This document shows positions 9,254 through 53,676 of a stretch of 64,000 nucleotides of DNA, piece after piece; positions within the stretch are counted from its first letter, which is position 1, and each line of letters starts with the position of its first letter. Source of the DNA: a virus (lineage: Duplodnaviria; Caudoviricetes); IMG/VR virus record IMGVR_UViG_3300048606_000120, positions 32,001-96,000 of that record; one strand, written 5' to 3'. The notes under the pieces were generated by a model, which had not been told where the DNA came from, did not search any database, and worked only from the letters and a program-made list of their open reading frames with translations. A program made the position numbers and the translations under genes.

Positions 9254-9559
9254 ATGGCTGGTGAACTGCTTGAGCTCGTAACGGCTGATCCTCGTCTCCG
9301 CTACCGCATCGCCGCTCGTGTGCATCAGGTGATCTCCGACTCGTTCGCAGCTGACAAGTCGCGAGTCACAGCGTCCGAGGCAAAGCGCCGATTCGGAATC
9401 GTCGAGCAGCTGATCCGCGAGTTGCGCGCCGACTACGGTTGGGCATTCGAGCGCATCCTCGACGCAATGCCGATCGCGTTGCGCTGCAAGCTCGACGGGG
9501 CGCCGTGGACTCCTGATCTTCGGCGCAACTCGTGGGCTGGCAGCGGGCAAAAGTTGTAA
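9254..9559 (+). CDS. Hypothetical protein
   Basis: ORF in operon orientation; its stop codon lies inside palindrome copy 1. Confidence 0.65.
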   Translation: MAGELLELVTADPRLRYRIAARVHQVISDSFAADKSRVTASEAKRRFGIVEQLIRELRADYGWAFERILDAMPIALRCKLDGAPWTPDLRRNSWAGSGQKL

Positions 9560-9575
9560 CCTCGAGGTTACAACT
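9552..9575. repeat. Dispersed palindrome copy 1 (AGTTGTAACCTCGAGGTTACAACT, perfect 24 bp)
   Basis: Read directly from the sequence. Confidence 0.97.
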
Positions 9576-9639
9576 CGGGTGAGCCACTTATTGCGATCGC
9601 AGAGCTGGCTAGCGTCTACTTTCTCGAAGTCAAAGGAGA

Positions 9640-10410
9640 TTGGGGATGCCGACCATTTCAGAACAAATCGCCGCTGCCAATGCCAAGCTCGATGCGCTCG
9701 TGACGGCAGCGGTTCCGGCGCCGGTCGAGCAGACCGTCAAGCTGACCATGCCCGAGGCTCTGGTGAGCATCACTGACGAGCTCGCGAAGGACACGGTTAC
9801 CAAAGAGCGAGCAGCCTACCTGCGATCAGTGTTGGGCGAGCTGGCCAAGAACTTCGAAGCTACGTCGTTCATTGAACTCAAAGTTCTGAATGACCCCGAC
9901 TTGATCAAGCCAGTCACCGAGAAGATCGGCACCATTCAGTCGCTCACCGTGGCGAGCCCGGATAGCGGATTTGCATCGAACCTGACGGGCGTCGCCAAAG
10001 CGCAGCTGATTCAGAAGTTGCTCCTCGACAAGGTCGAGCTGAAGAAGTCAGCGCTCACCGACAAGTTGGAGCAGATCAAGTCGATGTTCGCTCTCAACGA
10101 CGCTGATTTGAACGACTCCTATGACCTGCGCTGGAAGATTGGCGACTTGATCGGTGTGCTGCAGAACGCGATCAAGCTCGAGACGATGATCAACGGAGTT
10201 CCTGCACCTGCAGCGACCACGACCACAGCCACAGGAGCGCCTCAGGCGCCTGCGTTCGGAGGCGGAGTCGGAGCGGGCGGCGGAATGACCAAGGCAGCGG
10301 CAGAGCCGCTGTGGCCGCGGGACATGGCCAGCGCCAAGTTCGATCCGGTCAAGAAGGCATACGAGCCTGAGCCGACGGCGTGGGGAAACGACTCGGCGCC
10401 GAAGAGCTGA
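9640..10410 (+). CDS. Head-module hypothetical protein, possibly scaffold or internal protein
   Basis: Helical, Ala/Leu/Lys-rich, located between MuF and the protease; GGAG upstream. Confidence 0.65.
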   Translation: MGMPTISEQIAAANAKLDALVTAAVPAPVEQTVKLTMPEALVSITDELAKDTVTKERAAYLRSVLGELAKNFEATSFIELKVLNDPDLIKPVTEKIGTIQSLTVASPDSGFASNLTGVAKAQLIQKLLLDKVELKKSALTDKLEQIKSMFALNDADLNDSYDLRWKIGDLIGVLQNAIKLETMINGVPAPAATTTTATGAPQAPAFGGGVGAGGGMTKAAAEPLWPRDMASAKFDPVKKAYEPEPTAWGNDSAPKS

Positions 10411-10419
10411 GGTAGATCG

Positions 10420-11157: not shown

Positions 11158-11218
11158 TCATTGCGGTGCTGATCTTGTGTCGGTTACGTTGGGTTCGTTG
11201 TCGAGAGGGTTTTGGCCA

Positions 11219-14209: not shown

Positions 14210-14598
14210 GCGGCGGTCTTCGTGGCGGGCTGCTGCCTGATGAGGATGCCGTCGCTTATCCGAGCACGCGCCGAGAGGTCGTGATCCCGGCTGCCCCGCC
14301 GCCGCCGTCCAAGGCAGTTGGCGACGTCGGGAGGCATCTCCAGGCCGTCAAGGATTTGCGCGAGGTGCCGCGCGAGCTCGAAGGCCGCTTGGCCGCCCGG
14401 TTCAATGACGGCACGTTCCAAGCTCGCTGGGATGAGATCGTCATCGAGGCCGAAGCAGCAGGCGCAGACGGCAACCAGGCCCTAGGCATTGCGGCGCGCG
14501 AGCTCATGATCGATTTCGTCGAGTTGCTTCGGGCGGTGCTGTTCGAGCGCGAGAAGGCTGCGTTCGAGCAGATGCGGAACGGCGGCCAGACGCGCTAG
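14206..14598 (+). CDS. Hypothetical protein
   Basis: GTGA overlap with the previous gene. Confidence 0.55.
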   Translation: MSGGLRGGLLPDEDAVAYPSTRREVVIPAAPPPPSKAVGDVGRHLQAVKDLREVPRELEGRLAARFNDGTFQARWDEIVIEAEAAGADGNQALGIAARELMIDFVELLRAVLFEREKAAFEQMRNGGQTR

Positions 14599-14608
14599 GC
14601 TGCGGATC

Positions 14609-15343
14609 ATGTACGCCAGCGTGCAGGAGCTTCGCGACGAGGGGGTGACTGAAGCTCAAGCGAGCGACGAGCAGCTGCTCGCTCGAATCGCTCGCAGCAC
14701 GGCGCTGATCGATCGCTGGACTGGCAGGTGGTTCGAGCCTCGAGCCAAGACACTCCTGCTCGACGGATCGGGCGGTGCGATCCTGCAGCTCGGGCCTCCC
14801 ATCATCTCGATCACTGAGGTGCGGCTTCTGGGCCAGGGATCGCTGCTCATCACGAGTTCAGACGAGGTGGTCGACCTCGACCAAGTGCGCATCTACAACC
14901 GTCACATCACGTCTGGTCTCACCGATCCGGACGATCGTGACGATCCGAAGATCCAGTGGCTCGCGTTCGAGCGTGGGCGCCGCATGCCTGAGATTGCGGC
15001 CATCTCGTATTTCTCGAAGGGAGTGCAGAACATCCAAGTGACGGGCGTGTTCGGCTACACCGATCCGGATCTCGATGATCCCGACAACCTCGAGGGCGTG
15101 ACTCCGACTCTCATCACCTACGCCTGCATGCAGATGGTCGTGGCTGATTTGCCGAAGCTCGGCGACACGGAGTCACGCGACGAACAGGTGATGCGTGGCC
15201 GGATCACCTCGCTGCGCACTCGGGATCAGTCCATCACGTGGTCGGCGCTCAACTCAAAGCAGCAGGGAGCGTGGACAGGTTCGCCGAACGTCGACAACAT
15301 CATCGCCAGCTATCGCAGGCCTCCAACACTCGGAGCGGTTTGA
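14609..15343 (+). CDS. Head-tail adaptor/connector protein
   Basis: MYASVQELR...IDRWTGRWF...LLLDGSG, NIQVTGVFGY, P..I..AC; position after the capsid gene. Confidence 0.75.
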   Translation: MYASVQELRDEGVTEAQASDEQLLARIARSTALIDRWTGRWFEPRAKTLLLDGSGGAILQLGPPIISITEVRLLGQGSLLITSSDEVVDLDQVRIYNRHITSGLTDPDDRDDPKIQWLAFERGRRMPEIAAISYFSKGVQNIQVTGVFGYTDPDLDDPDNLEGVTPTLITYACMQMVVADLPKLGDTESRDEQVMRGRITSLRTRDQSITWSALNSKQQGAWTGSPNVDNIIASYRRPPTLGAV

Positions 15344-15597
15344 TGGAGATCGAGTTCCACAAGAAGACACTCGGCGATGGCTTTGCCGAGATTCGAGTTG
15401 TGATCCCGCGCCCGTCTAGCGACTCGCCGGACATCTCGGTCACGGGCGAGCTGGCACGCAAGACGTGGATCAAGTTCGTGTTGGCCACGTCAGCTGGCAT
15501 CGCTCACAGCTGCAACTGGCGAGAACTTGCTGTGGCTATCAGCGATTTGTGGGAGAGCGTGATGGTCGCTCTTCAAGAAGAGCAGAAGGGCGACTGA
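15343..15597 (+). CDS. Hypothetical protein
   Basis: TGATG overlap with the adaptor gene. Confidence 0.5.
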   Translation: MEIEFHKKTLGDGFAEIRVVIPRPSSDSPDISVTGELARKTWIKFVLATSAGIAHSCNWRELAVAISDLWESVMVALQEEQKGD

Positions 15598-17007: not shown

Positions 17008-17994
17008 GTGGCTGTTCCGACCATCACATCGGTCACTCCGGCGTTCGGGCATACCGGAGGACAAACCCTCGTCGAGATCCTGGGCAGTGGCTTTCAGACG
17101 TGGGTGATCCCGCCTCCCTCGAGCGAACCGAGCAGCGATCCGTGGCCCACGGTCGAAGTGCTGTTTGGCGGCTCTCAAGGGACTGATGTAGCGGTTGTGA
17201 CGAGCAGCCGGCTGTTCGTGCGAGCTCCGTCATCGCCGCTGGCGGGGATCAAGCCGGCATTCGGCGAAGGGGCCGTCGATCTGGTCGTGCGCAACATCGA
17301 CAGTGATGGAGTTTTGATCGGAGCCGAAACGGTTACACAGCTTGCTGGTTATGCGTATAGGCGAGCGCAGCTGGCAACTGAATCTGACATGGCTCGCTTG
17401 GTCCGGCAGCTGATCATCGAGTTGCGCAAGCAAGTCATCCCAAACGTGTCGATCACCAATCATTCGGACTTCGACATTGACACAACGGATCTCGCGAACA
17501 TCGTCGATGTGGCGCAGTTGCCGGCTCTCGTGATCTTCGGGCCGCAGCTGCAGGAGAATCGCTTCTACAGCGTGAATGGCATGGTCAACGTTTCTCGAGC
17601 TGGGTTCGAGAGCGATCGTCGGCGAGCGCCTGACACTGACGACTTGGCCTTCACGTTCCTCGGCATCTCCGATCTCAAGGGCGAAGCTCTCAGCTTGCAG
17701 AGCCTCGTGAGGCAGTTCTTCAAAACGAATCGTTGGCTGCAACTGCAGCGCGATCCGAACGATGCATCTCTCGGCTTCGTCAAGTACGACATGCAGCTGG
17801 ACTCGGGAGCTGGTGGAATTGGCTACTCGCCGCCGGCAGACCAGAAGTCGAACCTCAGATCTTTTTCCGGTAGCTTCGTCGTGCGTGGGTTCGACCACGA
17901 AGATCTGGTCGGGTTCGCCGGAAGCGACGCTGTGGGCCGCCTGCATCAGGTAACCGAAGATCCTTCGATCACCTCGCACAACAAGGACGGGTGA
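17008..17994 (+). CDS. IPT/TIG-domain protein, probable tail terminator
   Basis: PTITSVTPAFGHTGGQTLVEILGSGF (TIG signature); lies upstream of the sheath gene. Confidence 0.7.
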   Translation: MAVPTITSVTPAFGHTGGQTLVEILGSGFQTWVIPPPSSEPSSDPWPTVEVLFGGSQGTDVAVVTSSRLFVRAPSSPLAGIKPAFGEGAVDLVVRNIDSDGVLIGAETVTQLAGYAYRRAQLATESDMARLVRQLIIELRKQVIPNVSITNHSDFDIDTTDLANIVDVAQLPALVIFGPQLQENRFYSVNGMVNVSRAGFESDRRRAPDTDDLAFTFLGISDLKGEALSLQSLVRQFFKTNRWLQLQRDPNDASLGFVKYDMQLDSGAGGIGYSPPADQKSNLRSFSGSFVVRGFDHEDLVGFAGSDAVGRLHQVTEDPSITSHNKDG

Positions 17995-18379: not shown

Positions 18380-20635
18380 ATGAGCGCTCAGCTTCTCAGC
18401 TCCAAGATCATCGTGCAGGAGGAAGAGCCCTCACTACGCGTGATCCAACCATCGGCGACTGGAGTGCTCGCGTGCAACGGGATCACCGCGAAGGGCCCAG
18501 TCGGAGCGTCAACCCTTTGCACGTCGTTCGAGCAGTTCGTGAAGATCTTCGGCGGCGACATCTCGTCTGGAATCGCCACGTCTGCGGTTCGCGCCTTCTT
18601 CGCGAACGGCGGACAGCGCTTGTACTTCACGCGTGTCGTTCACTACAGCGACATCACGAACGCAGCTTCAAAGACAAGTGCTGCTGGCACGCTGAGCCTG
18701 CAGACGGCTGCAGCGGCTCCATCTGCCGGAGCTGCTCTGGGTTCGATCGTGGGTCCGTTCGCGCTTGCCAACGGCGACACGCTGCTGGTGTCTCGTGATG
18801 CGCTCGGCACTGCGACCGCGACATTCACCGCGACTCGCGCGACTCGCACAGCCGCCAATGCGCCGACGTATGTGCTCACGAATGGCATGACCTTGACCGT
18901 GAAGATCAACGGCGGCGCCGTGCAGACCATCACGTTCACCACGGGTGCTTTCGTGTCGATCGGAGCTGCGACGGGAGCCGAGGTAGTCGCCGTGATCAAC
19001 GCTGCGCTGCAAGGCGGCTTCGCAGACCTGAACTCGGGCACGCCTCGGATCAACAGCGACAAGCTCGGCACGGGCAGCCACGTCGAGGTCACTGGAGGCA
19101 CAGCGAACACTCCAATCGGCTTCGTGACAGCGGTGGTCAATGGGACCGGCAACGTCGCAGATGCGAGTGCAGTCACCGTCGCCGAGGTCAAGACGATCGT
19201 CGAAGGTGCTGTCTCGGGCGTGACTGTTTCGAATGCTGGCGGCGCGGTGGCGATCACGTCGAACACAACTGGCGCTTCGAGCTCTGTGCAAGTGACTGCT
19301 CCGAGCACGGCGGACGATGAGCTCGGCTTCGACAACGCCACTCACACGGGCAGCACTGGCACAGCGGTCAACACGTTGACGGTGGATGCGAAGTACGACG
19401 GCACGTATTCGTCGAATGTCACTGTGCTGGTCAGCTCGGCGACGTCCGGAGTTGCCGCCGAGTTCAACCTGGCGATCCTCTACAACGGCGTGACGGTCGA
19501 GCGTTTTCCGAACCTCACGATGCTGGATTCGGGAGCGCGATTCGTAGAGACGATCGTGAACGCAGAGGACGGCGGGTCTGGGTACATTCACGTGACTGAC
19601 CTCGACGTGAATCCTGCGAGCGCAGTTGCGGAGAGACCCGCCAACAGCTCGGGCAGCCCGGCAGTGGCGTTCGGTCCGTTGACGGGAGGCAGTGACGGGC
19701 TTGCGTCGATTGCCGATGTGGACTTCGTCGGCGACTCATCGAGTCACACTGGGTTCTTCTCGTTCGACCTGAACTCTGACATCGACCTGCTCATCAGTCC
19801 GGAGCGAGCGACGCCGGCGGTTCAGAACGCGATGCTTTCGTACGCATCGGTCACTCGCAACGGCGAAGTGTTCGCCGTTCTCGATCCGCCGGCTGGTCTT
19901 TCTCCCGAAGGAGTTAACACCTACGTCGAGACGACCGCGGCGATCCGGAACCTGACAGAACACGGCGGGTTCTACTGGCCTCGCGTGAAGGTGCTCAACC
20001 CAAACGCGACTGTGTTCGGGTCAGCCGAGACGATCATCGTGCCTCCCTCTGGCCACATCGCTGGCATGTTCAGCCGCACCGACAGTTCACGTGTCGGCGG
20101 CGTCTACGAACCGCCAGGCGGGGTGGAGAAGGGAGTGCTGGCGGGTGTGGTTGGGCTCGAGAACGATCGGGTCAACGACGAGAACGTGCGCGACCTGATC
20201 GCCCCCAAGCAGATCAACCCGATCTGCAAGCTGCGCGGCTACTCGATCGCGGTCGACGACGTGCAGACGCTTCGGATGGGCGGCGCGTTCCCGACCGTGT
20301 CTGAGCGTCGTGGCGTGTCGTTCATCGAGCGGTCGATCAAGGATGGGCTGCAGTTCGCTCGGCTGCGGAACAACGACGAGAGCTTGCGCGACGAGGTCTC
20401 TCGCACGATCGAGGCGTTCCTGCTGGTGCAGATGCGGGTGAAGGCGTTCCGCTCGATGGATCCGGAGAAGGCCTTCTTCGTCGACGTCGGCGACGCTCTC
20501 AATCCTCCGACCGAGCAGTTCGCCGGCAAGCTCAACGCCCGCATTGGGCTCGCGACGCAGAAGCCGAGCCGATTCTTGATCCTGTCGTTCGCCCAAGACA
20601 CGCGAGCCATCGACGAAGAAACTGCAGCTGGCTGA
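18380..20635 (+). CDS. Tail sheath protein
   Basis: KGPVG, FFANGGQRLY, FAVLDPP, YWPRV, VPPSGHIAG, INPI, RR..FIE.SI. Confidence 0.95.
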   Translation: MSAQLLSSKIIVQEEEPSLRVIQPSATGVLACNGITAKGPVGASTLCTSFEQFVKIFGGDISSGIATSAVRAFFANGGQRLYFTRVVHYSDITNAASKTSAAGTLSLQTAAAAPSAGAALGSIVGPFALANGDTLLVSRDALGTATATFTATRATRTAANAPTYVLTNGMTLTVKINGGAVQTITFTTGAFVSIGAATGAEVVAVINAALQGGFADLNSGTPRINSDKLGTGSHVEVTGGTANTPIGFVTAVVNGTGNVADASAVTVAEVKTIVEGAVSGVTVSNAGGAVAITSNTTGASSSVQVTAPSTADDELGFDNATHTGSTGTAVNTLTVDAKYDGTYSSNVTVLVSSATSGVAAEFNLAILYNGVTVERFPNLTMLDSGARFVETIVNAEDGGSGYIHVTDLDVNPASAVAERPANSSGSPAVAFGPLTGGSDGLASIADVDFVGDSSSHTGFFSFDLNSDIDLLISPERATPAVQNAMLSYASVTRNGEVFAVLDPPAGLSPEGVNTYVETTAAIRNLTEHGGFYWPRVKVLNPNATVFGSAETIIVPPSGHIAGMFSRTDSSRVGGVYEPPGGVEKGVLAGVVGLENDRVNDENVRDLIAPKQINPICKLRGYSIAVDDVQTLRMGGAFPTVSERRGVSFIERSIKDGLQFARLRNNDESLRDEVSRTIEAFLLVQMRVKAFRSMDPEKAFFVDVGDALNPPTEQFAGKLNARIGLATQKPSRFLILSFAQDTRAIDEETAAG

Positions 20636-22782: not shown

Positions 22783-23174
22783 CGAGGGCTCTGCTCGCTC
22801 GCAGCGCTGGCTAGGCGCCTCTTGGGAGCGGAGTCGAGCCATTCAAGCAGGTTGTCGATGCCGGCCCGCACATCGTCTGGCAGGTGCGGCAGCGTGGCTG
22901 CGATGGCCAGCCGCAGCAGTTGGATCGACTTGTTCAGCCGCATCGTTTCGATCGTTTTGCGAGCGACCTCGGACTGAAAATCGTCAAGCCAACGCTGCGT
23001 GCGAGCGTGAGCCGCTCTCTCCGCGGCGAGCTGTTCTTTGAGCGCAGCAGCGATGTCCGACGGTCGCTCTGCTGGCGTGAATGCCGGGCAGTTGCTTGCG
23101 CACGGCGGCTCGTATCCGCACTCGCACCATGTCGATTTTGAGGGCGCTTGGTCTGTCACGAAGGCCTCCTCCAA
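22779..23174 (-). CDS. Hypothetical protein (Cys cluster plus coiled coil)
   Basis: CECG...CASNC then coiled coil; starts next to palindrome copy 2. Confidence 0.55.
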   Translation of the reverse strand: MEEAFVTDQAPSKSTWCECGYEPPCASNCPAFTPAERPSDIAAALKEQLAAERAAHARTQRWLDDFQSEVARKTIETMRLNKSIQLLRLAIAATLPHLPDDVRAGIDNLLEWLDSAPKRRLASAASEQSPR

Positions 23175-23177
23175 GAA

Positions 23178-23199
23178 GTTGTAACCTCGAGGTTACAAC
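23178..23199. repeat. Dispersed palindrome copy 2 (22 bp perfect)
   Basis: GTTGTAACCTCGAGGTTACAAC between divergent genes. Confidence 0.97.
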
Positions 23200-23258
23200 A
23201 AGTTGCGAGTTCAACCCGCTTCCATTTATTCCCTACTGAGGCACCGAAAAGGATCTAC

Positions 23259-24035
23259 ATGGCTAGAGAGACCGAGCTGACATGTCCATCAGGGTTGCGC
23301 GTTCGGCTACGCAGCATCAAGGGCAAGGATTTGGACGGGCTGCGCGACAAGCGAAAAGTGGCGACTGGAGAAGCCATAAGCACGCTGTTGAACGAGTGCA
23401 CGCTCGAGGTTCTTGACGCTGCGATCTACAAGGACCTACCGACTGCGTTCAGCTGGGCAGATACGCTGATCGGTGATCGGATGAAGGCGATCGTGGCGTT
23501 GCGCCAGGCCACGTCAGGGGAGGAGTACGATTTCCGGCTGCGCTGTCGTGATCCAGAGTGCAGGGAAATGATCGACTGGACGATCAACTTGAGCGACTTG
23601 CCCGAGAAGCGGCTCACGCCCGAGAACGCGGCGGTCTTTCTCTCAGGCAACGTGTTCGAGACGCTGATCAACGACACACTTGTGAAGTTCAAGCTGCGGA
23701 CCGGGCGCGATCAGGCGAAGCTCCAGAAGCAGATCTTGCAGATGGACGCCGCTGCTCGGGATCACGACAAGAAGAACCGCCAGTCTGCTGAAAACAGAGC
23801 TGTGATCGGCGTGTTCGCTCGGATCATCTCGGTCGACGGTGTGACGAACGTAATGGACTGGCTAGGTGAGCTGGATTTGTCTGAGATCAATCAGCTCTCG
23901 AAGGCGATGGATGCTGCTGACTGCGGCATCGAAACCACGATCCAAGTCGTCTGCGAAAACGTGAACGGGAACGGGTGCGGGTTGAAGCAGGAGGTGGAGC
24001 TCCCTTTGGACAGCACCTTCTTTCAGCAGAGGTAG
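23259..24035 (+). CDS. Tail assembly chaperone / baseplate-hub assembly protein (T4 gp26-like)
   Basis: ATG at 23259; LTCPSG, IGDR...LRQ, CxxxxC pairs, ends LPLDSTFF; upstream of the tape measure gene. Confidence 0.75.
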   Translation: MARETELTCPSGLRVRLRSIKGKDLDGLRDKRKVATGEAISTLLNECTLEVLDAAIYKDLPTAFSWADTLIGDRMKAIVALRQATSGEEYDFRLRCRDPECREMIDWTINLSDLPEKRLTPENAAVFLSGNVFETLINDTLVKFKLRTGRDQAKLQKQILQMDAAARDHDKKNRQSAENRAVIGVFARIISVDGVTNVMDWLGELDLSEINQLSKAMDAADCGIETTIQVVCENVNGNGCGLKQEVELPLDSTFFQQR

Positions 24036-24307: not shown

Positions 24308-24331
24308 AGTTGTAACCTCGAGGTTACAACT
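24308..24331. repeat. Dispersed palindrome copy 3 (24 bp perfect), abutting the tape-measure ATG
   Basis: AGTTGTAACCTCGAGGTTACAACT|ATG. Confidence 0.97.
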
Positions 24332-28832: not shown

Positions 28833-29279
28833 ATGTCCCAAAGGCTGATAGCGATGGTGCGGAAGTTCGCAGATGCTTACAACAACGCAGACGGCGATGC
28901 TGTGGACGCTGCGTTCAACGAGATGACAGAAGCCCTCTGGGAGTGTCCTGGTTGGGCCGAGGCCAAAGCAGAGACGGCAGAGTTGCCCACCGGCAAGGAG
29001 CAGCGGATCGTGTTCGCCGTTGCGCTCGACAGCAGCGACAGCGTGCCGCTAGTGCTCCTGGGAATGCCTGCTGGCGCGTGGACGTACATCAAGGATGGGA
29101 TGACGTCGACCTTCGATCTCACGAAAGCAGGGATCCCCGTCAAGCTGATGATCTTCGGCAGCGCGACCCACGATTCGGTCATGGAGCTCATGAATCGGAT
29201 GATGGCTGAATCTTTCTCGAAGGACATTCCGATCGTCGATCGCCGTGGAGAGGACTTCTCCATCAAGCCGCGCGAATGA
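28833..29279 (+). CDS. Hypothetical protein between hub and spike genes
   Basis: ORF with GAGG upstream; overlaps the next gene by ATGA. Confidence 0.55.
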   Translation: MSQRLIAMVRKFADAYNNADGDAVDAAFNEMTEALWECPGWAEAKAETAELPTGKEQRIVFAVALDSSDSVPLVLLGMPAGAWTYIKDGMTSTFDLTKAGIPVKLMIFGSATHDSVMELMNRMMAESFSKDIPIVDRRGEDFSIKPRE

Positions 29280-29845
29280 GAGAAGAAGACAACCACATCT
29301 CGATCTACGACGGTGTTGTGTACGACAACGTCGATCCGCTGCGCATCGGCCGAGTGCGCGTGACCGTGCCTGGCATGATCGAGCCGTACAGTTCGTGGGC
29401 CTTGCCTAGTGGCAACTGCGGCTCGGGCTCGAGCGAAAGGGGCTTCTGGTGCGTGCCTGCCATCGGGTCCAACGTCAGCGTGATGTTCAACGAAGGGGAC
29501 CCCGATCATCCGCGGTACTTTCCTGGGCCCTGGGCGGCTCCGGATGACCAGCCCGAAAGCCCGACGTTCGCCGGCAGCTTGTCGCCGAAGGACGCCACGC
29601 AGGTCTCGGGGCTGCAAACGAAGCGCTGGGAGGTCGTCTGCGACGATCGACCGGGCCAGGAGAAGCTCACGATCCGCGATCGCCAGATGGACCAGAACAT
29701 GATCGAGATCGACGGCGTCGCTCAAGCAGTGACCATCAGCGGCACGGTGGCGATTCAGATCAAGAGCACTGGCGTCATCAACATCGAGGCCTTGCAGGTC
29801 ATCATCAACGGTCGTGCCGTGCTGCCTTCGGGTAGTCCGATATGA
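29276..29845 (+). CDS. Baseplate central spike (gpV / gp5 OB-fold)
   Basis: DNVDPLRIGRVRVTVP, SWALP, VPAIGSNV.V.F.EGDPDHP. Confidence 0.92.
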   Translation: MREEDNHISIYDGVVYDNVDPLRIGRVRVTVPGMIEPYSSWALPSGNCGSGSSERGFWCVPAIGSNVSVMFNEGDPDHPRYFPGPWAAPDDQPESPTFAGSLSPKDATQVSGLQTKRWEVVCDDRPGQEKLTIRDRQMDQNMIEIDGVAQAVTISGTVAIQIKSTGVINIEALQVIINGRAVLPSGSPI

Positions 29846-30552
29846 CGATCGACCTTCAAGCGCTATGCGTTCCGATCGCAGAGGCACCACGTGACCTCTG
29901 CATCACGCTGCCTGGCGGCTTGGAAGTTTGCGCGCAGAGCGGCGATCTCCCGCCGTCGCTGTTCGGCTATGCAAAGCTCGCGCTCGGTGCTGCCAACAGC
30001 GCGATGGCGCCGCTCGGTCCGATCTTCACGATCATCGAGACGATCACAGCTATCCAGAAGTGCCTGACGGCGATCCCAGGGATCCTCGGGCCGCCGCCAA
30101 ACCCGAAGAAGCTTCTCGATGCGCTGGTAGAGCTCGCCGAGAAGATCGAGAAGCTGCTGAAGCTGCTGCCGCAGTTGAGTGTGCCGTTGATGGTGGTGCA
30201 GCTTATCGACGTGATTATCGCAACCATCGAAGGCGCAGCGTCTGAGCTCTCTGCGATCGCTAGGCAAGTCGAGCGCCTCTCGGCAGCGCAGAGCTTGGTC
30301 TCTCAAGCGCCTGGGCTGAGCGTCATGATCCTGTGTGCGCAGACGTCCATCGACACCCAACTTTCGAACATCGAGAGAGCGTTTGCGTCGATCAACCCGA
30401 TCATCGAGGTGATCAACTTGCTCGGCTCGCTTGCTGGGTTGAAGCCGCTTCCGCCGTTCGAGGGCTTACCCGGAGACCCGATCGACGCTGTCACGGTTCT
30501 CCACTCCGCAGCCGACTCGCTGCGAGTGGTTCGATCAGCAATTCCCGTATGA
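29842..30552 (+). CDS. Hypothetical helical hydrophobic baseplate-region protein
   Basis: ATGA-coupled to the spike gene. Confidence 0.65.
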   Translation: MTIDLQALCVPIAEAPRDLCITLPGGLEVCAQSGDLPPSLFGYAKLALGAANSAMAPLGPIFTIIETITAIQKCLTAIPGILGPPPNPKKLLDALVELAEKIEKLLKLLPQLSVPLMVVQLIDVIIATIEGAASELSAIARQVERLSAAQSLVSQAPGLSVMILCAQTSIDTQLSNIERAFASINPIIEVINLLGSLAGLKPLPPFEGLPGDPIDAVTVLHSAADSLRVVRSAIPV

Positions 30553-30802
30553 AGCAGCGACGTGTTTCGTATTTGGTCATCTGTACACCCCGCGCTCTTG
30601 GTCATCGCAGAACTTGGCGGCGCTCAGCCGGTGTTCGTTTCGCACAAGACACAATTCGTACTCCGGAGAGTGCGTGCCGGAATAGCCGCCGCACCCGGCC
30701 AACAGCACCAAAACTAAATACTTCATCGCCAATTCTCCCTAGCCGTCAAGCGGTGCGTGCGCAAGTAGAGAAGGACCTTCCGGATCGTCGATTCTCGTCT
30801 GC

Positions 30803-33400
30803 ATGGCGCTGATGAAGATCGATCAGGCGGGCTTGTCAGCAGGCGTCGCTGGAAGGGCTCGGAACGACGGCCTGAGCGATGGGTCACTTGTGACCCTGAC
30901 CGACATGACGCCGGGCGGCAGTACGCTGTTCGAGCTGTTGTGGGCCCATCCTGAAGACACAACTTCGGTGCTTTCGTTGGCGCCGACAGTTGATCCGCAT
31001 GTCTGGACGTTCTCACCCACAGAAGCCGTGGGAGTTGGCTACGGCTTTCGGATTCGCCTGACGCACACGACAAACATCGGAGTCGTCACAACGCAGACGA
31101 GGATTTTCGGCATCCCGGATGGGCTCGGAGTCGTGAAGCCGATCCCTGGCGAGCGCTCAGACCCAAACGCGACGATCGCGAATGCGACTGATTCGGCGGT
31201 CATCGCGAGGTGCGAGCGCAACTGGCCAACCACTGGCTATCCGCTCGGCAACCCATTCGGATGGGGGCCTGAGCTGATCGAGCTGATCGAGTCGGCGACG
31301 GGTGGTCTGACGGCTCCTCAGCGCAACGCGATTCAAGCCGGCGACGTGCCGACGGACCTGAACCCGTTCATCACGATTAGTCATCTTGCAAAGCTCGGGA
31401 CTAGCGTCATCTCGCTCACTGATCAGCGATTTGGTTGGCCTGGGCACGCCACCAACATTGGCCCGTACCTGCAGGCTGCGATTGCTTACGCGATTGCACA
31501 TCGCATCGGAACGATCGAGCTGCCCGCAGGGTTGCTCATCTGCGATCGCCAGATAGTGGTGCCGCCTGCACCAGGGCCCGACGGCTTCAACCACGCAATC
31601 ATGATCCGCGGCCAGGGACGCGAGCAGACTTACATCTATTTCTACAATCACACCGGTGGCTTTCGGCTCGAAGGCACAATCGACAGCAGTGGGATGTACT
31701 ACTTCGGCGGCGGCTTGCGCGATCTCGCGCTCGTCGGGGTCTATGACGACGGCAGTCCGGCGGGCACACACAACGGCGTCGAGATGTTCGAGTGCATTTT
31801 CACGATGCTCGACAACGTGCACATCCGCGGCTTCAATGGATACGGCCTTTTCCTCGACAACATCTGGCCCAACGGCCAGCAAGATCTGCACTTCAGCAAC
31901 TGCCACATTCAGCTAAACCGAGCCGGTGGCATTTGGTGTAACTCGGTCCAACAGGCCGTGTTCAGCAACATGCAGATCAACCAGAACCTCGGCGATGGCG
32001 TGACATTCACATCTGGCAACAACGGCATCGCTTGGGTTGGCGGCTTATTCCAGAACGAGGGTCGCGCCATGCGCTTTACGCGGCGTGACGAGCCAGGCGA
32101 TGAGCAAGACGGCGAGCTAGCCATCAACATGTCGATGTACGGCTCGGTATACGTCGAACAGATTGATTTGGATGTACCGCTCTTCGATTTTGAAGAGCCA
32201 GCTGGCTCGAGTGAGTTCAATATGTTCGGGTCGCTGGTGGTTCAAGGCGGCTCACTAACCACCCCAGTCTTTCGATTCGAAGGTAACTACGCTGTGGTGG
32301 TGGCTGGAAAGATCCACGCAGCTGGCTGGAGCAAACATATTCAGGCCGTCAACCTCGCCGAGTTCACGGGCATAGGCCTGCAGAGCGGCAGCGACTACTA
32401 CGACTTCGACACCATCTCGCAAGCCAACGCCACGTTCATCGGCCGCGGAGGTCTATGTGTGGGCGCTGCCGCGCCCGCGGGCGATCGCGTTGCGCTTTAC
32501 AAGCCGTTGCAGCTCATGGAGCTGACGACTGGCCACGAGCCGGCTCTCAAAGGCGTGATCTACGACACTGCTCTCAACAAGTTGCGCTTCAGTCCTGACG
32601 GCACGCTGTGGTACACACTGTCAGTCGATCCGTTCAACCTCGCGATCGATCTCGCTCCGTATCTCGCCGAGTTCTGGGACGCTACGAGCGCGGCTGACTC
32701 AGGGGGCGCTCTCAGTGCATGGGTTGGCAGCTTCCATGCGACTCCATTCACATGGTCGGGCACGCCACCTACAGTCACGACATCTGCAGAGCTCAACGGC
32801 CAGAAGGTGGTCAAGTTCTCCAAGGCCAGCAGCATGTGGGTCGACACTGGCACGCTGACCGGCGGGGGCATTCTACCAGGTACATCCAACGACACTCCGT
32901 ATGCTGTGACCGTCCTGTGCCGTACGCCGCTCGGAGCTACCTCTGACCTCGATGTCATCAGCCAGCTGAGCGACGCGAACAACGATCAATTGGAACTGAA
33001 GGTGTGGGGCAACGGCGCAGCCGCCGATACGTTCCAAACTCGCGTCCAAGATCACATCGGAGGGGGAGGCGACTCTGGCAACCTCGCGATCGGGAACGTC
33101 GCCCCTGCTGGTCACATGGTCGAGTACATGCTGTCCGACTACCCGACTCCAGGCACTGTCAAGAACGTCATCACGATCGACCAAGGCGCCCCGCCGGCAA
33201 TGAATAACTTCCCGTCCACCAAGATCGGCCCCATCACTCGCGTGCTTTTGGGCAACAACCTCTTGGGGGACGCCACTCATCCGGCCGACGTCGAAGTCGG
33301 GCTCCATCTTGTGTGTCATACTCGCCCGCCCGCGAGCATCCGGGCGCGGTTCTATCAGTACATCCAGCAGCGTTTCGGGATCGATATAGCTGGCGTCTGA
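30803..33400 (+). CDS. Tail spike/fibre with right-handed beta-helix (pectate-lyase-like) and C-terminal lectin-like domain
   Basis: LQAAI...GTIELPAG...IRGQG; repeating N/G-rich beta-helix rungs. Confidence 0.8.
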   Translation: MALMKIDQAGLSAGVAGRARNDGLSDGSLVTLTDMTPGGSTLFELLWAHPEDTTSVLSLAPTVDPHVWTFSPTEAVGVGYGFRIRLTHTTNIGVVTTQTRIFGIPDGLGVVKPIPGERSDPNATIANATDSAVIARCERNWPTTGYPLGNPFGWGPELIELIESATGGLTAPQRNAIQAGDVPTDLNPFITISHLAKLGTSVISLTDQRFGWPGHATNIGPYLQAAIAYAIAHRIGTIELPAGLLICDRQIVVPPAPGPDGFNHAIMIRGQGREQTYIYFYNHTGGFRLEGTIDSSGMYYFGGGLRDLALVGVYDDGSPAGTHNGVEMFECIFTMLDNVHIRGFNGYGLFLDNIWPNGQQDLHFSNCHIQLNRAGGIWCNSVQQAVFSNMQINQNLGDGVTFTSGNNGIAWVGGLFQNEGRAMRFTRRDEPGDEQDGELAINMSMYGSVYVEQIDLDVPLFDFEEPAGSSEFNMFGSLVVQGGSLTTPVFRFEGNYAVVVAGKIHAAGWSKHIQAVNLAEFTGIGLQSGSDYYDFDTISQANATFIGRGGLCVGAAAPAGDRVALYKPLQLMELTTGHEPALKGVIYDTALNKLRFSPDGTLWYTLSVDPFNLAIDLAPYLAEFWDATSAADSGGALSAWVGSFHATPFTWSGTPPTVTTSAELNGQKVVKFSKASSMWVDTGTLTGGGILPGTSNDTPYAVTVLCRTPLGATSDLDVISQLSDANNDQLELKVWGNGAAADTFQTRVQDHIGGGGDSGNLAIGNVAPAGHMVEYMLSDYPTPGTVKNVITIDQGAPPAMNNFPSTKIGPITRVLLGNNLLGDATHPADVEVGLHLVCHTRPPASIRARFYQYIQQRFGIDIAGV

Positions 33401-38281: not shown

Positions 38282-39025
38282 ATGGGTCAGCTGGATTGGG
38301 GCAACTTGAGCGGCGCTTTGACGACCGATGATGCCGTCAGCGGTCCCACAGCGGGCACGACTCCGCCGTCAGGCGGAGGAACGTACGTGTTCGGCATGAA
38401 GGCCGTGCAGAACGTCGTCGGGGTTGTCGGCAAGTACTGCTTGCAGACGAACTTTTCACCAACGCTCACCGGGAAAGGTGGGCGCATCTCCGGAGCACTG
38501 CGCAAGTCATCCGTCGGAGCAGCCAGCGGGTTTTCGCCGTTCCTGTTCTTTGCTGCAGGCGGCACAGCGGTCTCTGACAATGCGTACTTGCTGGGCCTGT
38601 CGGACGAGAACCCGAGCCACATCGAGCTGCGCAAGGGCGCTATCTCGGAGGGGCTGCCGGCGATCGTGGCTCTCGATCCCGATGCCAGCCCGAATGTCCT
38701 GATGCGCTCGACCGATGTGTTTCCTGCCGACACGTGGCAGCACCTGCGACTCGACGTGGTGATTCAGGGCACTGGCGACGTCATCTTGCAGGTCTATCGC
38801 AGCGACTTGGCCCTGCACAACGTCAGCAGCCCCTCCTGGGCGCTTGTGCCGGGCATGGAAGGGCCGCACTACCCAACGTTCGCCGGGTTCGTCGACGACG
38901 TCCTGGGCGTCAACACAGGCTCGCCGCCGTATGCCGCTGGCGGGCGCATCGGCTTCGCATCGCGGTTCAGCACGGCGAACCGGGCGGCCTACTTCGATCA
39001 AATTTCGGTCGAACGTCAACTTTAG
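38282..39025 (+). CDS. Hypothetical beta-sandwich virion protein
   Basis: WQHLRLDV, GRIGF, AYFDQISV resemble a concanavalin-like fold. Confidence 0.65.
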   Translation: MGQLDWGNLSGALTTDDAVSGPTAGTTPPSGGGTYVFGMKAVQNVVGVVGKYCLQTNFSPTLTGKGGRISGALRKSSVGAASGFSPFLFFAAGGTAVSDNAYLLGLSDENPSHIELRKGAISEGLPAIVALDPDASPNVLMRSTDVFPADTWQHLRLDVVIQGTGDVILQVYRSDLALHNVSSPSWALVPGMEGPHYPTFAGFVDDVLGVNTGSPPYAAGGRIGFASRFSTANRAAYFDQISVERQL

Positions 39026-39027: not shown

Positions 39028-39048
39028 AGTTGTAACCTCGAGGTTACA
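39028..39048. repeat. Dispersed palindrome copy 4 (18-bp perfect core 39031-39048)
   Basis: AGTTGTAACCTCGAGGTTACA in a 26-bp intergenic gap. Confidence 0.95.
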
Positions 39049-47131: not shown

Positions 47132-47153
47132 AGTTGTAACCTCGAGGTTACAA
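47132..47153. repeat. Dispersed palindrome copy 5 (20-bp perfect core 47134-47153)
   Basis: AGTTGTAACCTCGAGGTTACAA. Confidence 0.95.
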
Positions 47154-47689: not shown

Positions 47690-48007
47690 CTCTTTTTCTC
47701 TCTTGAACGAGAGTGCAAGTCCAAGTGGATCTTCTCGGCTGAGCGAAAACGCCGCTGTCGGTTAACTCATGTTCCGAAGGAACATGAGTTGTAGATCGAT
47801 CAACCCTGAATCTGCTTCGCTCGCTCCGCTGCGCTCTCGCTGATTCAGAAGATCAAAAACATTCCGGGTTAGGGACTCCCGAAGGGAGAACCGTTAACCC
47901 CCGGTGGGGGGTTATTAGGGGGGAGGGACGTCGGTTTGTAAAGCGCAAACTGACATGCCCGATCTCGATTTCTGCAAAACTAAAATCTGTAACCTCGAGG
48001 TTACAAC
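47690..48007. promoter_or_regulatory. Non-coding hairpin cluster upstream of the replication genes (origin or regulatory candidate)
   Basis: Stems at 47764-47790, 47876-47888, 47895-47914 and 47930-47954; lower GC; no credible ORF. Confidence 0.55.
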
Positions 48008-50109: not shown

Positions 50110-50130
50110 ACAGAACACACGAGGTGCGAT

Positions 50131-50496
50131 GTGAGCACTGACGATGACTTCGAAGCTCGTGATGGCGACGTGTTGGTGGTTTCGTATCCTGAGGTGAAGA
50201 TCCCGCTCGCTACGAAGTACAGCACTGTCACGATCGGCGGGCTGATCTACACGCGGCAGTTGCGCAGCAAGGACAGCCCGACCGAGGAATACCAGCGGGT
50301 CTACGCGTTCTTGAGGCACATGGCAGAGGCTGACGCTCGCGCGAAGGTGCAGCAGTGGACCGAGGAGCTTGCGGCAAAGCGACCGCCACCGCTGCCGACG
50401 GCTCCGAAGCCGGTGGGTGAAGTTGTAACCTCGAGGTTACAACCCAGCGCAGCAGCTCCTGGCGGCGTCGTGCGGCCGAAGCCGGTGAGTCGGTGA
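50131..50496 (+). CDS. Hypothetical protein
   Basis: GAGGT ribosome-binding site; contains palindrome copy 7 in frame. Confidence 0.65.
   Translation: MSTDDDFEARDGDVLVVSYPEVKIPLATKYSTVTIGGLIYTRQLRSKDSPTEEYQRVYAFLRHMAEADARAKVQQWTEELAAKRPPPLPTAPKPVGEVVTSRLQPSAAAPGGVVRPKPVSR
50422..50443. repeat. Dispersed palindrome copy 7 (22 bp perfect, intragenic)
   Basis: GTTGTAACCTCGAGGTTACAAC, read as VVTSRLQ. Confidence 0.97.
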
Positions 50497-50954: not shown

Positions 50955-50957
50955 GCT

Positions 50958-52418
50958 GTGGCGGTCTCGAAAGAGTTCGTCTACGACTCGTCCAACGAAG
51001 CACTAGTTTTGCGAGCGGCGATTGCGCTCGCGCGTGAGTCAGATCGCACGCAGTTCCGGGCGCTCGTGCATTCCATCGGAGAGGACGAGTTCCTCGTGGC
51101 TCAGCACTCTTCGCTGTGGCGTGTGCTGCGTCGCACCGCGGACGGGGGGCTCGAGTACACGACGGAGACCGTGCTGCAGCTGATGGCGGCAGAGCCATCA
51201 GAGGTCGACGTCAACTATTTGGCTGAGCTCGAGAGGGCTGCAGTCTTGCCAGCGAACCTAGACTGGCACGTGCAAACGCTTCGTTGGGACGCGACGCGGG
51301 CACGAGTAGTGAAGAACGGGTTGCCCGAGCTAGTTCGCGACTTGAGCGATCCGCGAGTGACAGTTGACCGTGCAGTCACGTCGGCTCGCTCTATTGTTCG
51401 AGCGCTCGAAGGCGGCGGCGGGCGTAAGTTCATTCATCGGCGAGAAGAGCTTGCTGCTGTTTATCGAACCGAGCTCGCTAAGCGGCGCGACCAAGGCAAC
51501 TTCTACCCGTGTGGGTTTGAGCATGTTGATGGGCTGATGTCAGAAGGATTCAAGCCAGGCAATACGGCGATCATCACGGGCTTGTCAGGCAGCGGGAAGA
51601 GCACGTTTGCAGCGCGGCTCGCGATCAACCTAGCTCGTCTGGGAAGGCGGCCGATGATCTGTGCGTGGGAGATGGGCGGCACGTCCACGCTTGACGTCAT
51701 TGTTTCGATGCTCACCGGCATCTCGCTCGACATCGTCATCAAGGGCACTTACAACGACCTCGACTGCAGGCGGCTGGAGCGCGCGAGCGATTGGGCGAAC
51801 AAGAAGATCCTGTTCATGGAGAACGCGTTCTTCGGTCAGCTCGCGAGCAGTGGTGGCGGCAGCAGCAGCAGTGACAGAAAGCAGAGGCGATCGAACGATC
51901 GCAACCTCGACATCTTAGAGGGCTACATCGCCGAAAGCGGCTGCGACGAGATCATTATGGACCTGTGGGATCGCATCCTCGCTGATCAGAATCCCGACGC
52001 GGTCACCGACGCCTTGTATCGTCAGCAGAACATGCATCGGGAATACGGCGTACATGGGACGTTGCTCGTCCAGCTGCGGCTGAAAGACGTCGAGCGGCGC
52101 GCCGATAAGCGACCGACTCGCGAGTCGATCAAAGGCGTCGGCACGTTCGTCGAGGTGGCCGATTTGATCTTCGGCGTGCACCGCGACGCGCAGTTCAAGG
52201 ACGTTCCCGATAACACGATCGAGCTCATCTGCTTGAAGCAGCGCAAAGGCCGGTCGAACTGGGCGGTTCGGTTCGGGTGGTGCGGTGAGATCTGCGAGAT
52301 CAGCGGCGGCGAAGAAGTGCCCTACAACCCCGGGCTCGAGGCGACTGGAGACTACGGCGACATCGCAGATCCCTCTGCGATCCGTACGAGCCCGCGGAAG
52401 ATGAATCGTCGCGATTGA
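50958..52418 (+). CDS. dnaB: DnaB-like replicative helicase
   Basis: GLSGSGKS, WEM, IIMD, LVQL...ERRADKRP, EVADLIFGVHR, KQRKG. Confidence 0.92.
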   Translation: MAVSKEFVYDSSNEALVLRAAIALARESDRTQFRALVHSIGEDEFLVAQHSSLWRVLRRTADGGLEYTTETVLQLMAAEPSEVDVNYLAELERAAVLPANLDWHVQTLRWDATRARVVKNGLPELVRDLSDPRVTVDRAVTSARSIVRALEGGGGRKFIHRREELAAVYRTELAKRRDQGNFYPCGFEHVDGLMSEGFKPGNTAIITGLSGSGKSTFAARLAINLARLGRRPMICAWEMGGTSTLDVIVSMLTGISLDIVIKGTYNDLDCRRLERASDWANKKILFMENAFFGQLASSGGGSSSSDRKQRRSNDRNLDILEGYIAESGCDEIIMDLWDRILADQNPDAVTDALYRQQNMHREYGVHGTLLVQLRLKDVERRADKRPTRESIKGVGTFVEVADLIFGVHRDAQFKDVPDNTIELICLKQRKGRSNWAVRFGWCGEICEISGGEEVPYNPGLEATGDYGDIADPSAIRTSPRKMNRRD

Positions 52419-52672
52419 GGACTGGTCGGCCGGCACACTAGATCGTCTTCCGCCCCACGAGCCGCTGGGAAGGACGCCGAAGAAGCTGAGCAGCCAGAGC
52501 AAGAAGAGCAGCAGCAGGACGACTAACGCGATTCGTTGGAACGGTTGGGGGAGAGGGATCAACGTGATGATCCAATACACGATGCCGCAGATGATCACGG
52601 CGATGAGCAGTTGAACGAGCATTGCGAACATAGCCAGATCATCTGCTTGCCGATCAGCGAGGAGCAACATCG

Positions 52673-53623
52673 ATGACTTTTCGCGATCGAGTTGACGTGG
52701 AGAAGCTATTGCAGGCACTCGGCGTGAAGTACGAGCGACGCGGGCGCAAGTTGCAGGCGTTGTGTCCCAATCCAGATCACCAGGACTCGAGTCCGTCTTG
52801 GGCGATCGTCGACTCGCCAGGCGCGTCGACGCACGCAGGGCACCACTGTTTTAGTTGCAAGTTTGGCGGCGGGCCGTGGGAGCTCGTGATGGCCGTTCGC
52901 GGCGTCGACGAAGCCGAGGCGTTCGCCTTCATGGGCGAGCTCGTGTCAGGCGTTGCGCGCCCCCAAGAGGGTGTGCCGCAGCTCGTGATCAAGCCGCCAG
53001 CGGCGCGTGTGGAGTACGTGTTGCCGCGGGGAGTTCAGATCCCGTCGATTGACGGATCGAGCTGGCCCGAGCCGTTCGCGAAGTACCTCGAAGTGCGGGG
53101 CGTCACCCAGGAGCAGATCGATCGCTGGAGCATCGGGTTCGCGAAGTGGGGTCCGCTCGCTTGGAGGGTGGTGATCCCCGTTCATACACGCGGGCGTTTG
53201 GTGGCACATGTAGCCCGGTCGATTTTTAGGGACGGTTCGAAGCGCTACGACATGCCTACCAAGGGTCGAGCGTCGCCGACAATGGCAGTGTTCGGCGAGC
53301 CGCTGATTGATCCTGAGCTTGGGGTTTTGACCATCGCAGAAGGTTCGTTCTCGATGCTTGCCCTCGAGCGAGCGGGTGCGCCGAATCCTGTTGCGCTGCT
53401 CGGCAGCGATTGGTCGCCGGCGAAGGCCGCGATCCTGACAGCTGTGCAGTGGTCGCATGTGATCGTTGCGACGGATCCCGACATGGCAGGCGACAAAGTC
53501 GCTCGGGCCATTTCAGCGTCCTTTCGAAAAGCGAAAATATCTCGACTGCGGATGGACCAAAGTCCGGATGATTGCGAACTGGGTGTTTTGCGAGCAAGGA
53601 CCCGAGAAGTTCTCGCAGCGTGA
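52673..53623 (+). CDS. DNA primase (CHC2 zinc finger plus TOPRIM)
   Basis: CPNPDH.D..PS...CFSC; AEG..S; DPDMAG. Confidence 0.9.
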   Translation: MTFRDRVDVEKLLQALGVKYERRGRKLQALCPNPDHQDSSPSWAIVDSPGASTHAGHHCFSCKFGGGPWELVMAVRGVDEAEAFAFMGELVSGVARPQEGVPQLVIKPPAARVEYVLPRGVQIPSIDGSSWPEPFAKYLEVRGVTQEQIDRWSIGFAKWGPLAWRVVIPVHTRGRLVAHVARSIFRDGSKRYDMPTKGRASPTMAVFGEPLIDPELGVLTIAEGSFSMLALERAGAPNPVALLGSDWSPAKAAILTAVQWSHVIVATDPDMAGDKVARAISASFRKAKISRLRMDQSPDDCELGVLRARTREVLAA

Positions 53624-53652
53624 AAAATAACCGTTGTTTGCAGGCGCTCCGG

Positions 53653-53676
53653 AGTTGTAACCTCGAGGTCACAACT
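53653..53676. repeat. Dispersed palindrome copy 8 (24 bp, one mismatch at 53670)
   Basis: AGTTGTAACCTCGAGGTCACAACT, intergenic between primase and UvrD. Confidence 0.95.

Follow-up and report, generated by a model that had tools for sequence, protein, structure and literature searches.

Near-identical palindromes dispersed at gene borders of an uncultivated myovirus: candidate operator or roadblock sites for a phage regulator

Dispersed binding sites for a phage repressor are known from actinophages. The cluster A mycobacteriophages, such as L5 and Bxb1, carry tens of near-identical short sites, the stoperators, in short intergenic gaps (PMC6550527, PMC9283540, PMC4557955), with motif variants that track the repressor of each phage (PMC6550527), and 18–30 dispersed repressor sites have been described in phiC31 and L5, the conserved inverted repeats (CIRs) of phiC31 numbering about 18 (PMC4557955). 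Stoperators are asymmetric 13-mers that are bound by a monomer, are oriented with transcription and share their sequence with the operator of the early promoter. The CIRs, in the work of Ingham et al. 1994 and Smith et al. 1999, are reportedly 17 bp long, intergenic and bound by the phage repressor. The palindromes analyzed here resemble stoperators in being near-identical, dispersed and intergenic with a genome-specific variant, and CIRs in being highly conserved inverted repeats of intergenic regions. However, the site is a perfect palindrome whose orientation is free in the relatives, a different repeat is found at the early promoters, and the carrier is an uncultivated myovirus; phiC31, for which binding was shown, is likewise unrelated in repressor family, in host and in phage type, while here binding is predicted from sequence.

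The phage genome (G000) has a length of 109,517 bp with a 127-bp terminal repeat and belongs to an uncultivated tailed phage, a myovirus. A preliminary description of the window, which is the whole stretch of 64,000 nucleotides analyzed, had reported eight copies of the palindrome, seven with an identical core and one with a single mismatch, and the motif scan recovered all of them in place, where about none is expected by chance (Table 1); the 18-mer was absent from all 100 dinucleotide-preserving shuffles. Most copies are lengthened by AGT/ACT flanks to a perfect palindrome of 22–26 bp, and the core is AT-richer than the genome, as had been noted (G+C of 44% vs. 60.6%). The scan of the full genome that had been proposed there revealed a total of 14 copies (~0 expected), beside a degenerate extra copy at genome position 18672, and the heptamer TGTAACC was detected outside the motif in two other places and in the degenerate copy. 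The variant arm of the mismatched window copy was also observed at genome position 900.

Table 1. Palindrome copies found in the window by motif scan (window positions; G001 is a relative).
Copy	Core	Core mismatches	Length with flanks	Strand	Location	Position in G001
1	9555–9572	0	24 bp (9552–9575)	.	Core positions 3–5 (TAA) are the stop codon of a 101-aa gene (9254–9559); next gene from 9646	63323
2	23180–23197	0		.	Gap 5′ of a T4-baseplate-like gene (23259–24035)	Absent at the equivalent place
3	24311–24328	0		.	Ends 3 nt 5′ of the tape-measure gene ATG (24332)	81180
4	39031–39048	0		.	Fills the 26-bp gap between a gene (38282–39025) and a TTG start (39052)	
5	47135–47152	0	26 bp	.	4 nt 5′ of a TTG start (47157)	
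6	47988–48005	0		.	2 nt 5′ of a TTG start (48008)	
7	50424–50441	0		.	Intragenic, near the 3′ end of an ORF (50131–50496)	
8	53656–53673	1 (GGTCACA arm)		.	Between primase (52673–53623) and helicase (53747–56605) genes	

Our own gene calls placed seven window copies between genes and one within a gene, in agreement with the preliminary description. Genome-wide, the centers of 12 (or 13) of the 14 copies fall between genes, in a genome whose coding fraction is 0.92 (binomial p ~5e-12), and the copy at genome position 31193, outside the window, lies probably inside the N-terminal extension of its gene. Such numerous near-identical copies, mostly in short intergenic gaps, are the pattern expected of dispersed repressor sites. 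Five copies end 2–5 nt upstream of a start codon and contain the ribosome-binding site of the downstream gene, with GAGG located 7–9 nt 5′ of the start, three of these starts being TTG, and about half of the sites are 50–390 nt from the next start. In the tape-measure copy, this internal GAGG stands at Shine-Dalgarno distance from the ATG; copy 5 stands at the head of the replication module, copy 6 closes a 320-bp non-coding block, and copy 7 occupies part of the last 24 codons of a 121-aa ORF, where it reads V-T-S-R-L-Q in frame, with the next gene 58 nt downstream.

The preliminary description had held that sites without positional conservation in related phages would favor a mobile or selfish micro-repeat. 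Seven sites were found at orthologous positions in G001, an 82-kb relative with ~70% nucleotide identity to G000, out of 9–10 comparable sites across ~30% nucleotide divergence. The 18-mer is 92% identical at these seven sites vs. 28%, which is chance level, for the 20-nt flanks (anchored ungapped counts, which replaced a free-end global alignment that was too noisy). The unconserved positions expected of a mobile REP- or MITE-like micro-repeat were not observed, and the comparison indicates that the sites are old and under selection. Copy 1 is placed alike relative to the orthologous gene in G001, and at the ortholog of copy 3 the G001 variant is reversed in orientation. The symmetric form is present at 14/14 sites in G000, while G001, L269, L270, L271 and L274 harbor one asymmetric variant at 20/20 sites, with A/T at positions 5/14 and one arm changed, in 13 '+' and seven '−' orientations that are nearly all between + strand genes. 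The single copy of L268 has both arms changed symmetrically. The variant is uniform within each genome and changes in concert among the relatives, as is the case for repressor sites, and the length conserved in the relatives is 18 bp only. In IMG/VR, the exact 18-mer was found in no genome except this one, and the degenerate pattern was found in G001 only, plus unrelated single matches. De novo k-mer and palindrome searches detected no equivalent repeat in the complete relatives G002 and G004 (sheath identity 46–54%), and none of the relatives recovered from metagenomes with the sheath protein exceeded 56%. A megablast search of isolated phages with 20 kb of window sequence returned no match, and the only relatives of the sheath protein among isolated phages are at ≤29% identity.

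Since the sequence is kept but the hairpin is not, and the orientation is free, it is suggested that a phage protein, sequence-specific and probably a dimer, recognizes the duplex DNA. The earlier proposal of sites for a dimeric phage protein holds in kind, while its parS-like, extrachromosomal-prophage alternative does not. The palindromes would be high-affinity duplex-DNA sites for one sequence-specific phage-encoded protein and would form a genome-wide operator/roadblock set at gene and module borders. Once occupied, they would block or insulate transcription between modules, namely the early/regulatory, DNA modification plus head, tail, and replication modules, and because five copies contain the ribosome-binding site of the downstream gene, occupancy would also cover initiation regions. 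The most likely binder would be an XRE-family helix-turn-helix protein (genome 19946–20353, outside the window), acting as a dimer, alone or together with the 304-aa protein encoded upstream, a conserved partner. We give about an even chance to this explanation, in which the palindromes are dispersed operators or roadblocks and the XRE protein is the most likely regulator to bind them. The analysis shows how many copies there are, that they lie between genes and at conserved positions, that the relatives keep the sequence and not the hairpin, that orientation is free and that variants change in concert across each genome; protein binding, the identity of the binder and a repression or roadblock effect are what we infer. 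Two features count against operators: a homodimer leaves the strictly heterotypic half-sites of the relatives unexplained, and near-invariance at all 18–24 positions, including the center, is tighter than usual for operators. Moreover, the leaderless-type early promoters (genome 25.9–29.8 kb) carry another conserved repeat, so the palindrome, which does not recur as an operator at an early lytic promoter, would not be a classical immunity operator. A promoter function of the palindrome itself was rejected, since no shared −10 element follows the five start-adjacent copies and the phage has its distinct early-promoter repeat.

In a six-frame search of the genome, no gene but the XRE gene matched HTH_3 strongly, and this gene is present in every motif-bearing relative whose examined stretch spans the region (G001, L269 and L277), while none was found beside the homolog of the partner in the motif-less L272. 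G000, G001 and L269 each have a palindrome site upstream of the partner–XRE pair, and L277 has one at the stop codon of the XRE gene. In the predicted recognition helix, whose assignment follows solved XRE repressors by analogy, residue two is A where sites are symmetric and P or V where they are asymmetric (four sequences, with the XRE region covered in five genomes only). Counting against the XRE protein as binder, other conserved DNA-binding proteins are encoded, namely a serine recombinase, an HTH_8 protein and an HTH_31 protein. The 304-aa partner (genome 19013–19927) is a predicted winged-helix protein with, by eye only, a possible nuclease-like N-terminal half, and its AlphaFold model is poor (pLDDT 45) and inadequate for a fold search. 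A sigma-70 region-4-like protein (genome 23067–23453, minus strand) was rejected as the specific binder, since its helix-turn-helix hardly differs between motif-bearing and motif-less genomes.

It is unlikely, yet conceivable, that the palindromes are instead targets of a phage site-specific enzyme, either the serine recombinase or the 304-aa protein, with DNA cleavage or exchange taking place at the borders of modules. The recombinase gene (genome 179–868; PF00239, E 8e-33; catalytic Ser and DRLxR motifs) adjoins a copy in two genomes, ending 29 nt from the next copy in G000 and 20 nt in G001. The palindrome, a dyad of about 24–26 bp around a central CG dinucleotide, matches the size of serine-recombinase crossover sites (gix, hix, res site I), and its TGTAA..CC and GG..TTACA arms may resemble those of gix. 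Several copies also stand where G000–G001 homology begins or ends (e.g., 900/21003 and 31193/57759), and invariance over the full length fits an enzyme site. However, 14 copies are present and not 2–3, the CC–GG spacing is 4 bp and not 2, only 18 bp are kept in the relatives, and the 304-aa protein is poorly modeled; with fourteen identical crossover sites that lack polarity, the genome would be scrambled, whereas G000 and G001 are collinear, and copies flank no inversion or deletion between them. That such substrates would enable programmed module exchange or excision between co-infecting relatives is distinctly unlikely; if true, it would represent a genome-wide cassette system in a virus, in which the heterotypic half-sites would reflect asymmetric synapsis and not repression.

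A selfish or passively homogenised micro-repeat, whose near-palindromic copies would have spread, or been evened out among themselves by gene conversion, without a factor acting in trans, is quite unlikely as well. It would account for one uniform variant per genome, for the orientation that differs between clades at one orthologous site, for the three central-TG copies of G001, all of the same compound variant, and for site turnover, with one site lost in L267 and others found only in G000 or only in G001. Against it stand the intergenic placement and the positions kept between random flanks, and we know of no mechanism that copies an 18-bp unit. REP/BIME palindromes and the start-associated sequences of cluster K mycobacteriophages are likewise short gene-border repeats, some of which overlap the ribosome-binding site, but REPs are defined by their hairpin and variable in position, while here the positions are kept and the hairpin is not kept in the relatives.

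It is very unlikely that the palindrome works at the RNA level, as a hairpin of polycistronic mRNA that serves processing or stability or that masks the Shine-Dalgarno sequence of the next gene. The predicted hairpin of the G000 24-mer is stable (−12.1 kcal/mol, up to −19.5 in context), all sites are transcribed, and the start-adjacent GAGG and TTG starts would suit such a mask. However, the stem is mismatched in the asymmetric variant conserved in five relatives (−2.6 to −3.0 kcal/mol), which in its native context is not always within the minimum-energy fold, and the two orientations of this variant would give two different RNAs. The distance to the next start at about half of the sites also speaks against a mask. 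Neither a conserved stable stem nor a U-tract was found, and the sole compensatory-type change is the single copy of L268. An intrinsic terminator was rejected, there being no U-tract 3′ of the copies.

Equally improbable is binding by a host regulator, such as an alphaproteobacterial XRE protein, which the phage would borrow to sense the state of its host. Half-sites identical to those of the phage (TGTAACC-N4-GGTTACA) occur once or twice per genome upstream of a small-XRE operon, as its apparent autoregulatory operator, in several Alphaproteobacteria (Sphingomonadales, Brevundimonas, Rhodobacteraceae and Rhodobiaceae genomes). This suggests that sequences of this type are used elsewhere as operators by helix-turn-helix proteins, which also speaks for the phage XRE protein as binder. 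The recognition helix of that bacterial XRE differs from the one of the phage, which also counts against the phage XRE protein as binder. A large-terminase search found no related prophage in 401 alphaproteobacterial genomes; the lineage-specific phage variants are easier to explain by a phage-encoded partner, and the half-site may simply recur, given the multi-copy clusters of the same pattern in unrelated phages (iterons and a hicAB upstream region).

Partition sites are the least probable. RK2 carries 12 KorB operators, and phage N15 has dispersed parS sites. KorB, one protein with a global silencing role, works from multiple identical palindromes dispersed across a mobile replicon (PMC11790492), as the palindromes here are, and a copy stands at the 5′ end of a gene for a ParB-like protein (genome 31146/31218–31763; PHROG ParB-like families, phrog_620 E 1.6e-24) in seven genomes. 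The suggestion that a ParB-family protein loads on them in the manner of parS or KorB sites, for partition or organisation of a plasmid prophage, is nevertheless most improbable and was not upheld: six-frame searches of the genome found neither ParA (PF13614) nor Pfam ParB_N (PF02195), the ParB-like protein has an N-terminal ParB/Srx-type domain only, followed by a Cys-rich C-terminal tail, and sequence searches of Pfam, PHROGs and PDB recognised no helix-turn-helix in it, its gene heads a cluster for DNA modification, no motif copy accompanies its homologs in L272 and L273, the palindrome sequence is unlike parS, and the genome encodes a tyrosine integrase.

The best reading of the G000 palindromes is a further case of dispersed phage-regulator sites, the pattern known from L5 and phiC31. 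If operator or roadblock sites are indeed what they are, a control strategy of actinophages would extend to an uncultivated ~110-kb myovirus lineage with 60% G+C, and a very specific 24-bp protein–DNA pair would be available for study. The relatives offer a clean natural experiment, with a perfect dyad in one lineage and, in others, one arm altered throughout, whichever way the site is oriented, and this pattern, which a simple homodimer does not explain, may reveal an unusual recognition mode.

The genome under study (G000) is an IMG/VR virus contig of 109,517 bp that carries a 127-bp terminal repeat and has a G+C content of 60.6%; the window corresponds to its bases 32001–96000. It belongs to a myovirus in which the portal, MuF-like head protein, sheath and tape measure were identified, along with helicases, primase and DNA polymerase for replication, and nearly all of its genes lie on the plus strand, the exceptions being two leftward blocks. 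The eight copies of the palindromic core reported for the window in the preliminary description were all recovered by a window scan, seven exact and one with a single mismatch, whereas 100 dinucleotide-preserving shuffles yielded none of the 18-mer. A total of 14 copies were obtained from the whole genome, most of which are extended by AGT/ACT flanks to perfect palindromes of 22–26 bp. The TGTAACC heptamer is nearly exclusive to the motif in this genome, and all 18–24 motif positions are invariant within one genome.

Genome coordinates of the palindromic motif and of the regulatory and recombination genes in G000
Feature	Genome position	Strand	Location
Motif copies	900, 7412, 18614, 21200, 31193, 41555, 55180, 56311, 71031, 79135, 79988, 82424, 85656, 102599		
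Degenerate motif copy	18672		
Serine recombinase	179–868		outside window
Tyrosine integrase	14211–15482	minus	outside window
HTH_31 protein	17476–17712		outside window
304-aa protein	19013–19927		outside window
XRE HTH_3 protein	19946–20353		outside window
Sigma-70 region-4-like protein	23067–23453	minus	outside window
HTH_8 protein	23719–24012		outside window

Based on our own codon-usage gene calls (coding fraction 0.92), the motif centres are intergenic at 12 of 14 sites genome-wide (p about 5e-12). At three sites (window 9555; genome 18614 and 102599) the TAA of the motif terminates the preceding gene, and at five (window 24311, 39031, 47135 and 47988; genome 31193) the motif's GAGG is located 7–9 nt 5′ of a start codon; the next start is 50–390 nt away at the remaining sites. 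The large terminase gene immediately follows the copy at genome 7412. Neither a U-tract nor a common −10 element was found 3′ of the copies. A 320-bp non-coding block (window 47690–48007) with a copy at both sides contains a perfect 12-bp stem (window 47764–47790, genome 79764–79790). It leads into the replication genes and may serve as an origin or control region.

With the sheath protein as query, one close relative was obtained from IMG/VR, G001 (82 kb), which is collinear with G000 and shows 77% sheath identity and ~70% nucleotide identity. All ten of its motif copies are altered in a single arm (A/T at positions 5/14), with orientations split six to four. In three of them, constituting one compound variant, the central CG is also replaced by TG. 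Positional conservation in relatives, on which the preliminary description had in part staked its reading beforehand, was observed, as seven G000 sites share their position relative to orthologous genes in G001; the core is 92% identical at these pairs, against 28% (chance level) for the 20-nt flanks. Further relatives were retrieved from public assemblies through homologs of the ParB-like protein, and the loci L269, L270, L271 and L274/L275 share the asymmetric variant of G001. Across these loci and G001, 20 of 20 sites are heterotypic (13 "+" and 7 "−"), nearly all between plus-strand genes, and the site at the ParB-like gene is oriented "+" in L269 and L274 and "−" in G001, L270 and L271. 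Both arms are changed symmetrically in L268, the site at the ParB-like gene is lost in L267, the closest relative, and the copies are decayed in L276 and L277. No motif was found in L272 or L273, nor any equivalent repeat in G002 and G004, two complete genomes of more distant relatives. This symmetric/asymmetric dichotomy among relatives is unusual.

Binding by a homodimer leaves the strictly heterotypic half-sites at all 20 sites unexplained. Given the heterotypic sites, the within-genome invariance and the single compound central-TG variant, the motif may instead be bound by an asymmetric or heteromeric binder, may be an enzyme target, or its copies may be homogenised by gene conversion. As for a folded structure, in RNA or DNA, the G000 24-mer has a hairpin energy of −12.1 kcal/mol, versus −2.6 to −3.0 for the variant kept in five relatives, whose hairpin in native context is sometimes outside the minimum-energy fold. 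The primary sequence of the motif is under selection and the stem is not, while orientation with respect to transcription is free; a terminator, a processing hairpin or an SD-masking stem is therefore disfavoured as the conserved function, and recognition of duplex DNA is favoured. Of the protein-site reading put forward earlier, duplex recognition is thus strengthened, as positions are conserved and the stem is not, and the parS-like, plasmid-prophage alternative is not supported, since ParA and Pfam ParB_N (like Peptidase_S24) were not found in searches of G000 and an integrase is present.

A protein matching PHROG ParB-like families (genome 31146–31763) does have its start on or close to the motif copy at genome 31193. 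Besides a Cys-rich tail it has only the N-domain of ParB/Srx type, and its gene heads a DNA-modification cluster. This motif copy probably lies inside the conserved N-terminal extension of the protein, which is rich in Lys/Arg; the C-terminus bears a Cys motif. Throughout many relatives the gene is always first in a cluster with DNA_methylase, UDG, Asn_synthase and methyltransferase genes (window 1–3665 in G000).

Three proteins are considered candidate binders of the motif by inference: the XRE protein, its 304-aa upstream partner and the serine recombinase. HTH_3 has no strong match in the genome other than the XRE protein, whose gene was found in G001, L269 and L277, but not adjacent to the homolog of the partner in L272, which lacks the motif. 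A motif site lies 5′ of the partner–XRE gene pair in three genomes, and that of L277 is at the XRE stop codon. In the predicted recognition helix, assigned by analogy with solved XRE repressors, one residue distinguishes the genome with symmetric sites from those with asymmetric ones. The partner has a predicted winged helix at residues 152–211 (pLDDT 64–88) within a model that is poor overall, and its N-terminal half shows an alpha/beta pattern and a D...QxK motif that is PD-(D/E)XK-like by eye only. This protein (in L168, a stretch outside the window) is conserved together with the XRE gene, its winged helix falling in the C-terminal part, and has no Pfam or PDB sequence match. The serine recombinase stop codon is followed 20–29 nt on by a motif copy in both G000 and G001. 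The sigma region-4-like protein was rejected as a specific partner because genomes that have the motif and genomes that lack it do not differ in this helix-turn-helix. Little more than a sigma-70 region 4.2 helix-turn-helix and a Cys-rich tail is present in this small protein, which is conserved throughout the phage group (homologs in L271, L272, L273 and L277) and could target host RNA polymerase or −35 elements.

A pattern scan of 185,579 species genomes gave a match count of about chance. TGTAACC-N4-GGTTACA occurs once per genome, often as a tandem pair, in several Alphaproteobacteria (Sphingomonadales, Brevundimonas, Rhodobacteraceae and Rhodobiaceae; L085, L090, L110, L112, L115, L116 and L121), 5′ of a conserved operon of a small membrane protein and a ~70-aa XRE protein, of which it is a probable autoregulatory operator. 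Such a sequence therefore probably serves as a helix-turn-helix operator elsewhere; however, the phage XRE protein shares only 27–32% identity with these proteins and differs from them in the recognition helix, so that specificity cannot be carried over. The pattern also clusters in iteron-like arrays and upstream of hicAB in unrelated viral contigs, indicating that the half-site recurs in unrelated systems. At least six degenerate-pattern matches (L072, L076, L080, L098, L109 and L132), far above any other bacterial genome scanned, come from one low-G+C uncultured Clostridia MAG and may be a separate repeat family.

CTCGAG, the XhoI site, lies at the motif centre. In whole genomes it is almost absent from G002 (2 observed vs 82 expected) and G004 (0 vs 53), reduced in G001 (56 vs 90) and at expectation in G000 (137 vs 140), which contains a cytosine-modification cluster (window 1–3665) that G001 lacks; together these suggest restriction pressure on CTCGAG in the phage group. 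The large-terminase ORF of G001 (28939–31725) encodes 928 aa versus 524 aa in G000, with ~1.4 kb of extra internal sequence, possibly an intein or other insertion. At least seven copies of a ~27-bp repeat were observed outside the window at genome 25.9–29.8 kb (about 5900–9800 of the stretch L169), each followed by a TAnnnT hexamer and, 5–9 nt on, by ATG; the spacer holds an imperfect dyad resembling an operator. They look like early promoters of leaderless mRNAs, and ~20 copies of a very different repeat, CCGGATGCGGGACAGA, take the same role in G001.

Uniform genome-wide variants that differ among relatives are the product expected of co-evolution with a trans-acting protein. The motif behaves in this like the stoperators of cluster A mycobacteriophages, which vary along with their repressors (PMC6550527), and 18–30 dispersed repressor sites are known from phiC31 and L5 (PMC4557955). 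The motif is a real, selected cis-element, and its copies most likely make up a set of dispersed operators or roadblocks, a known kind of system occurring here in a new lineage of phages.
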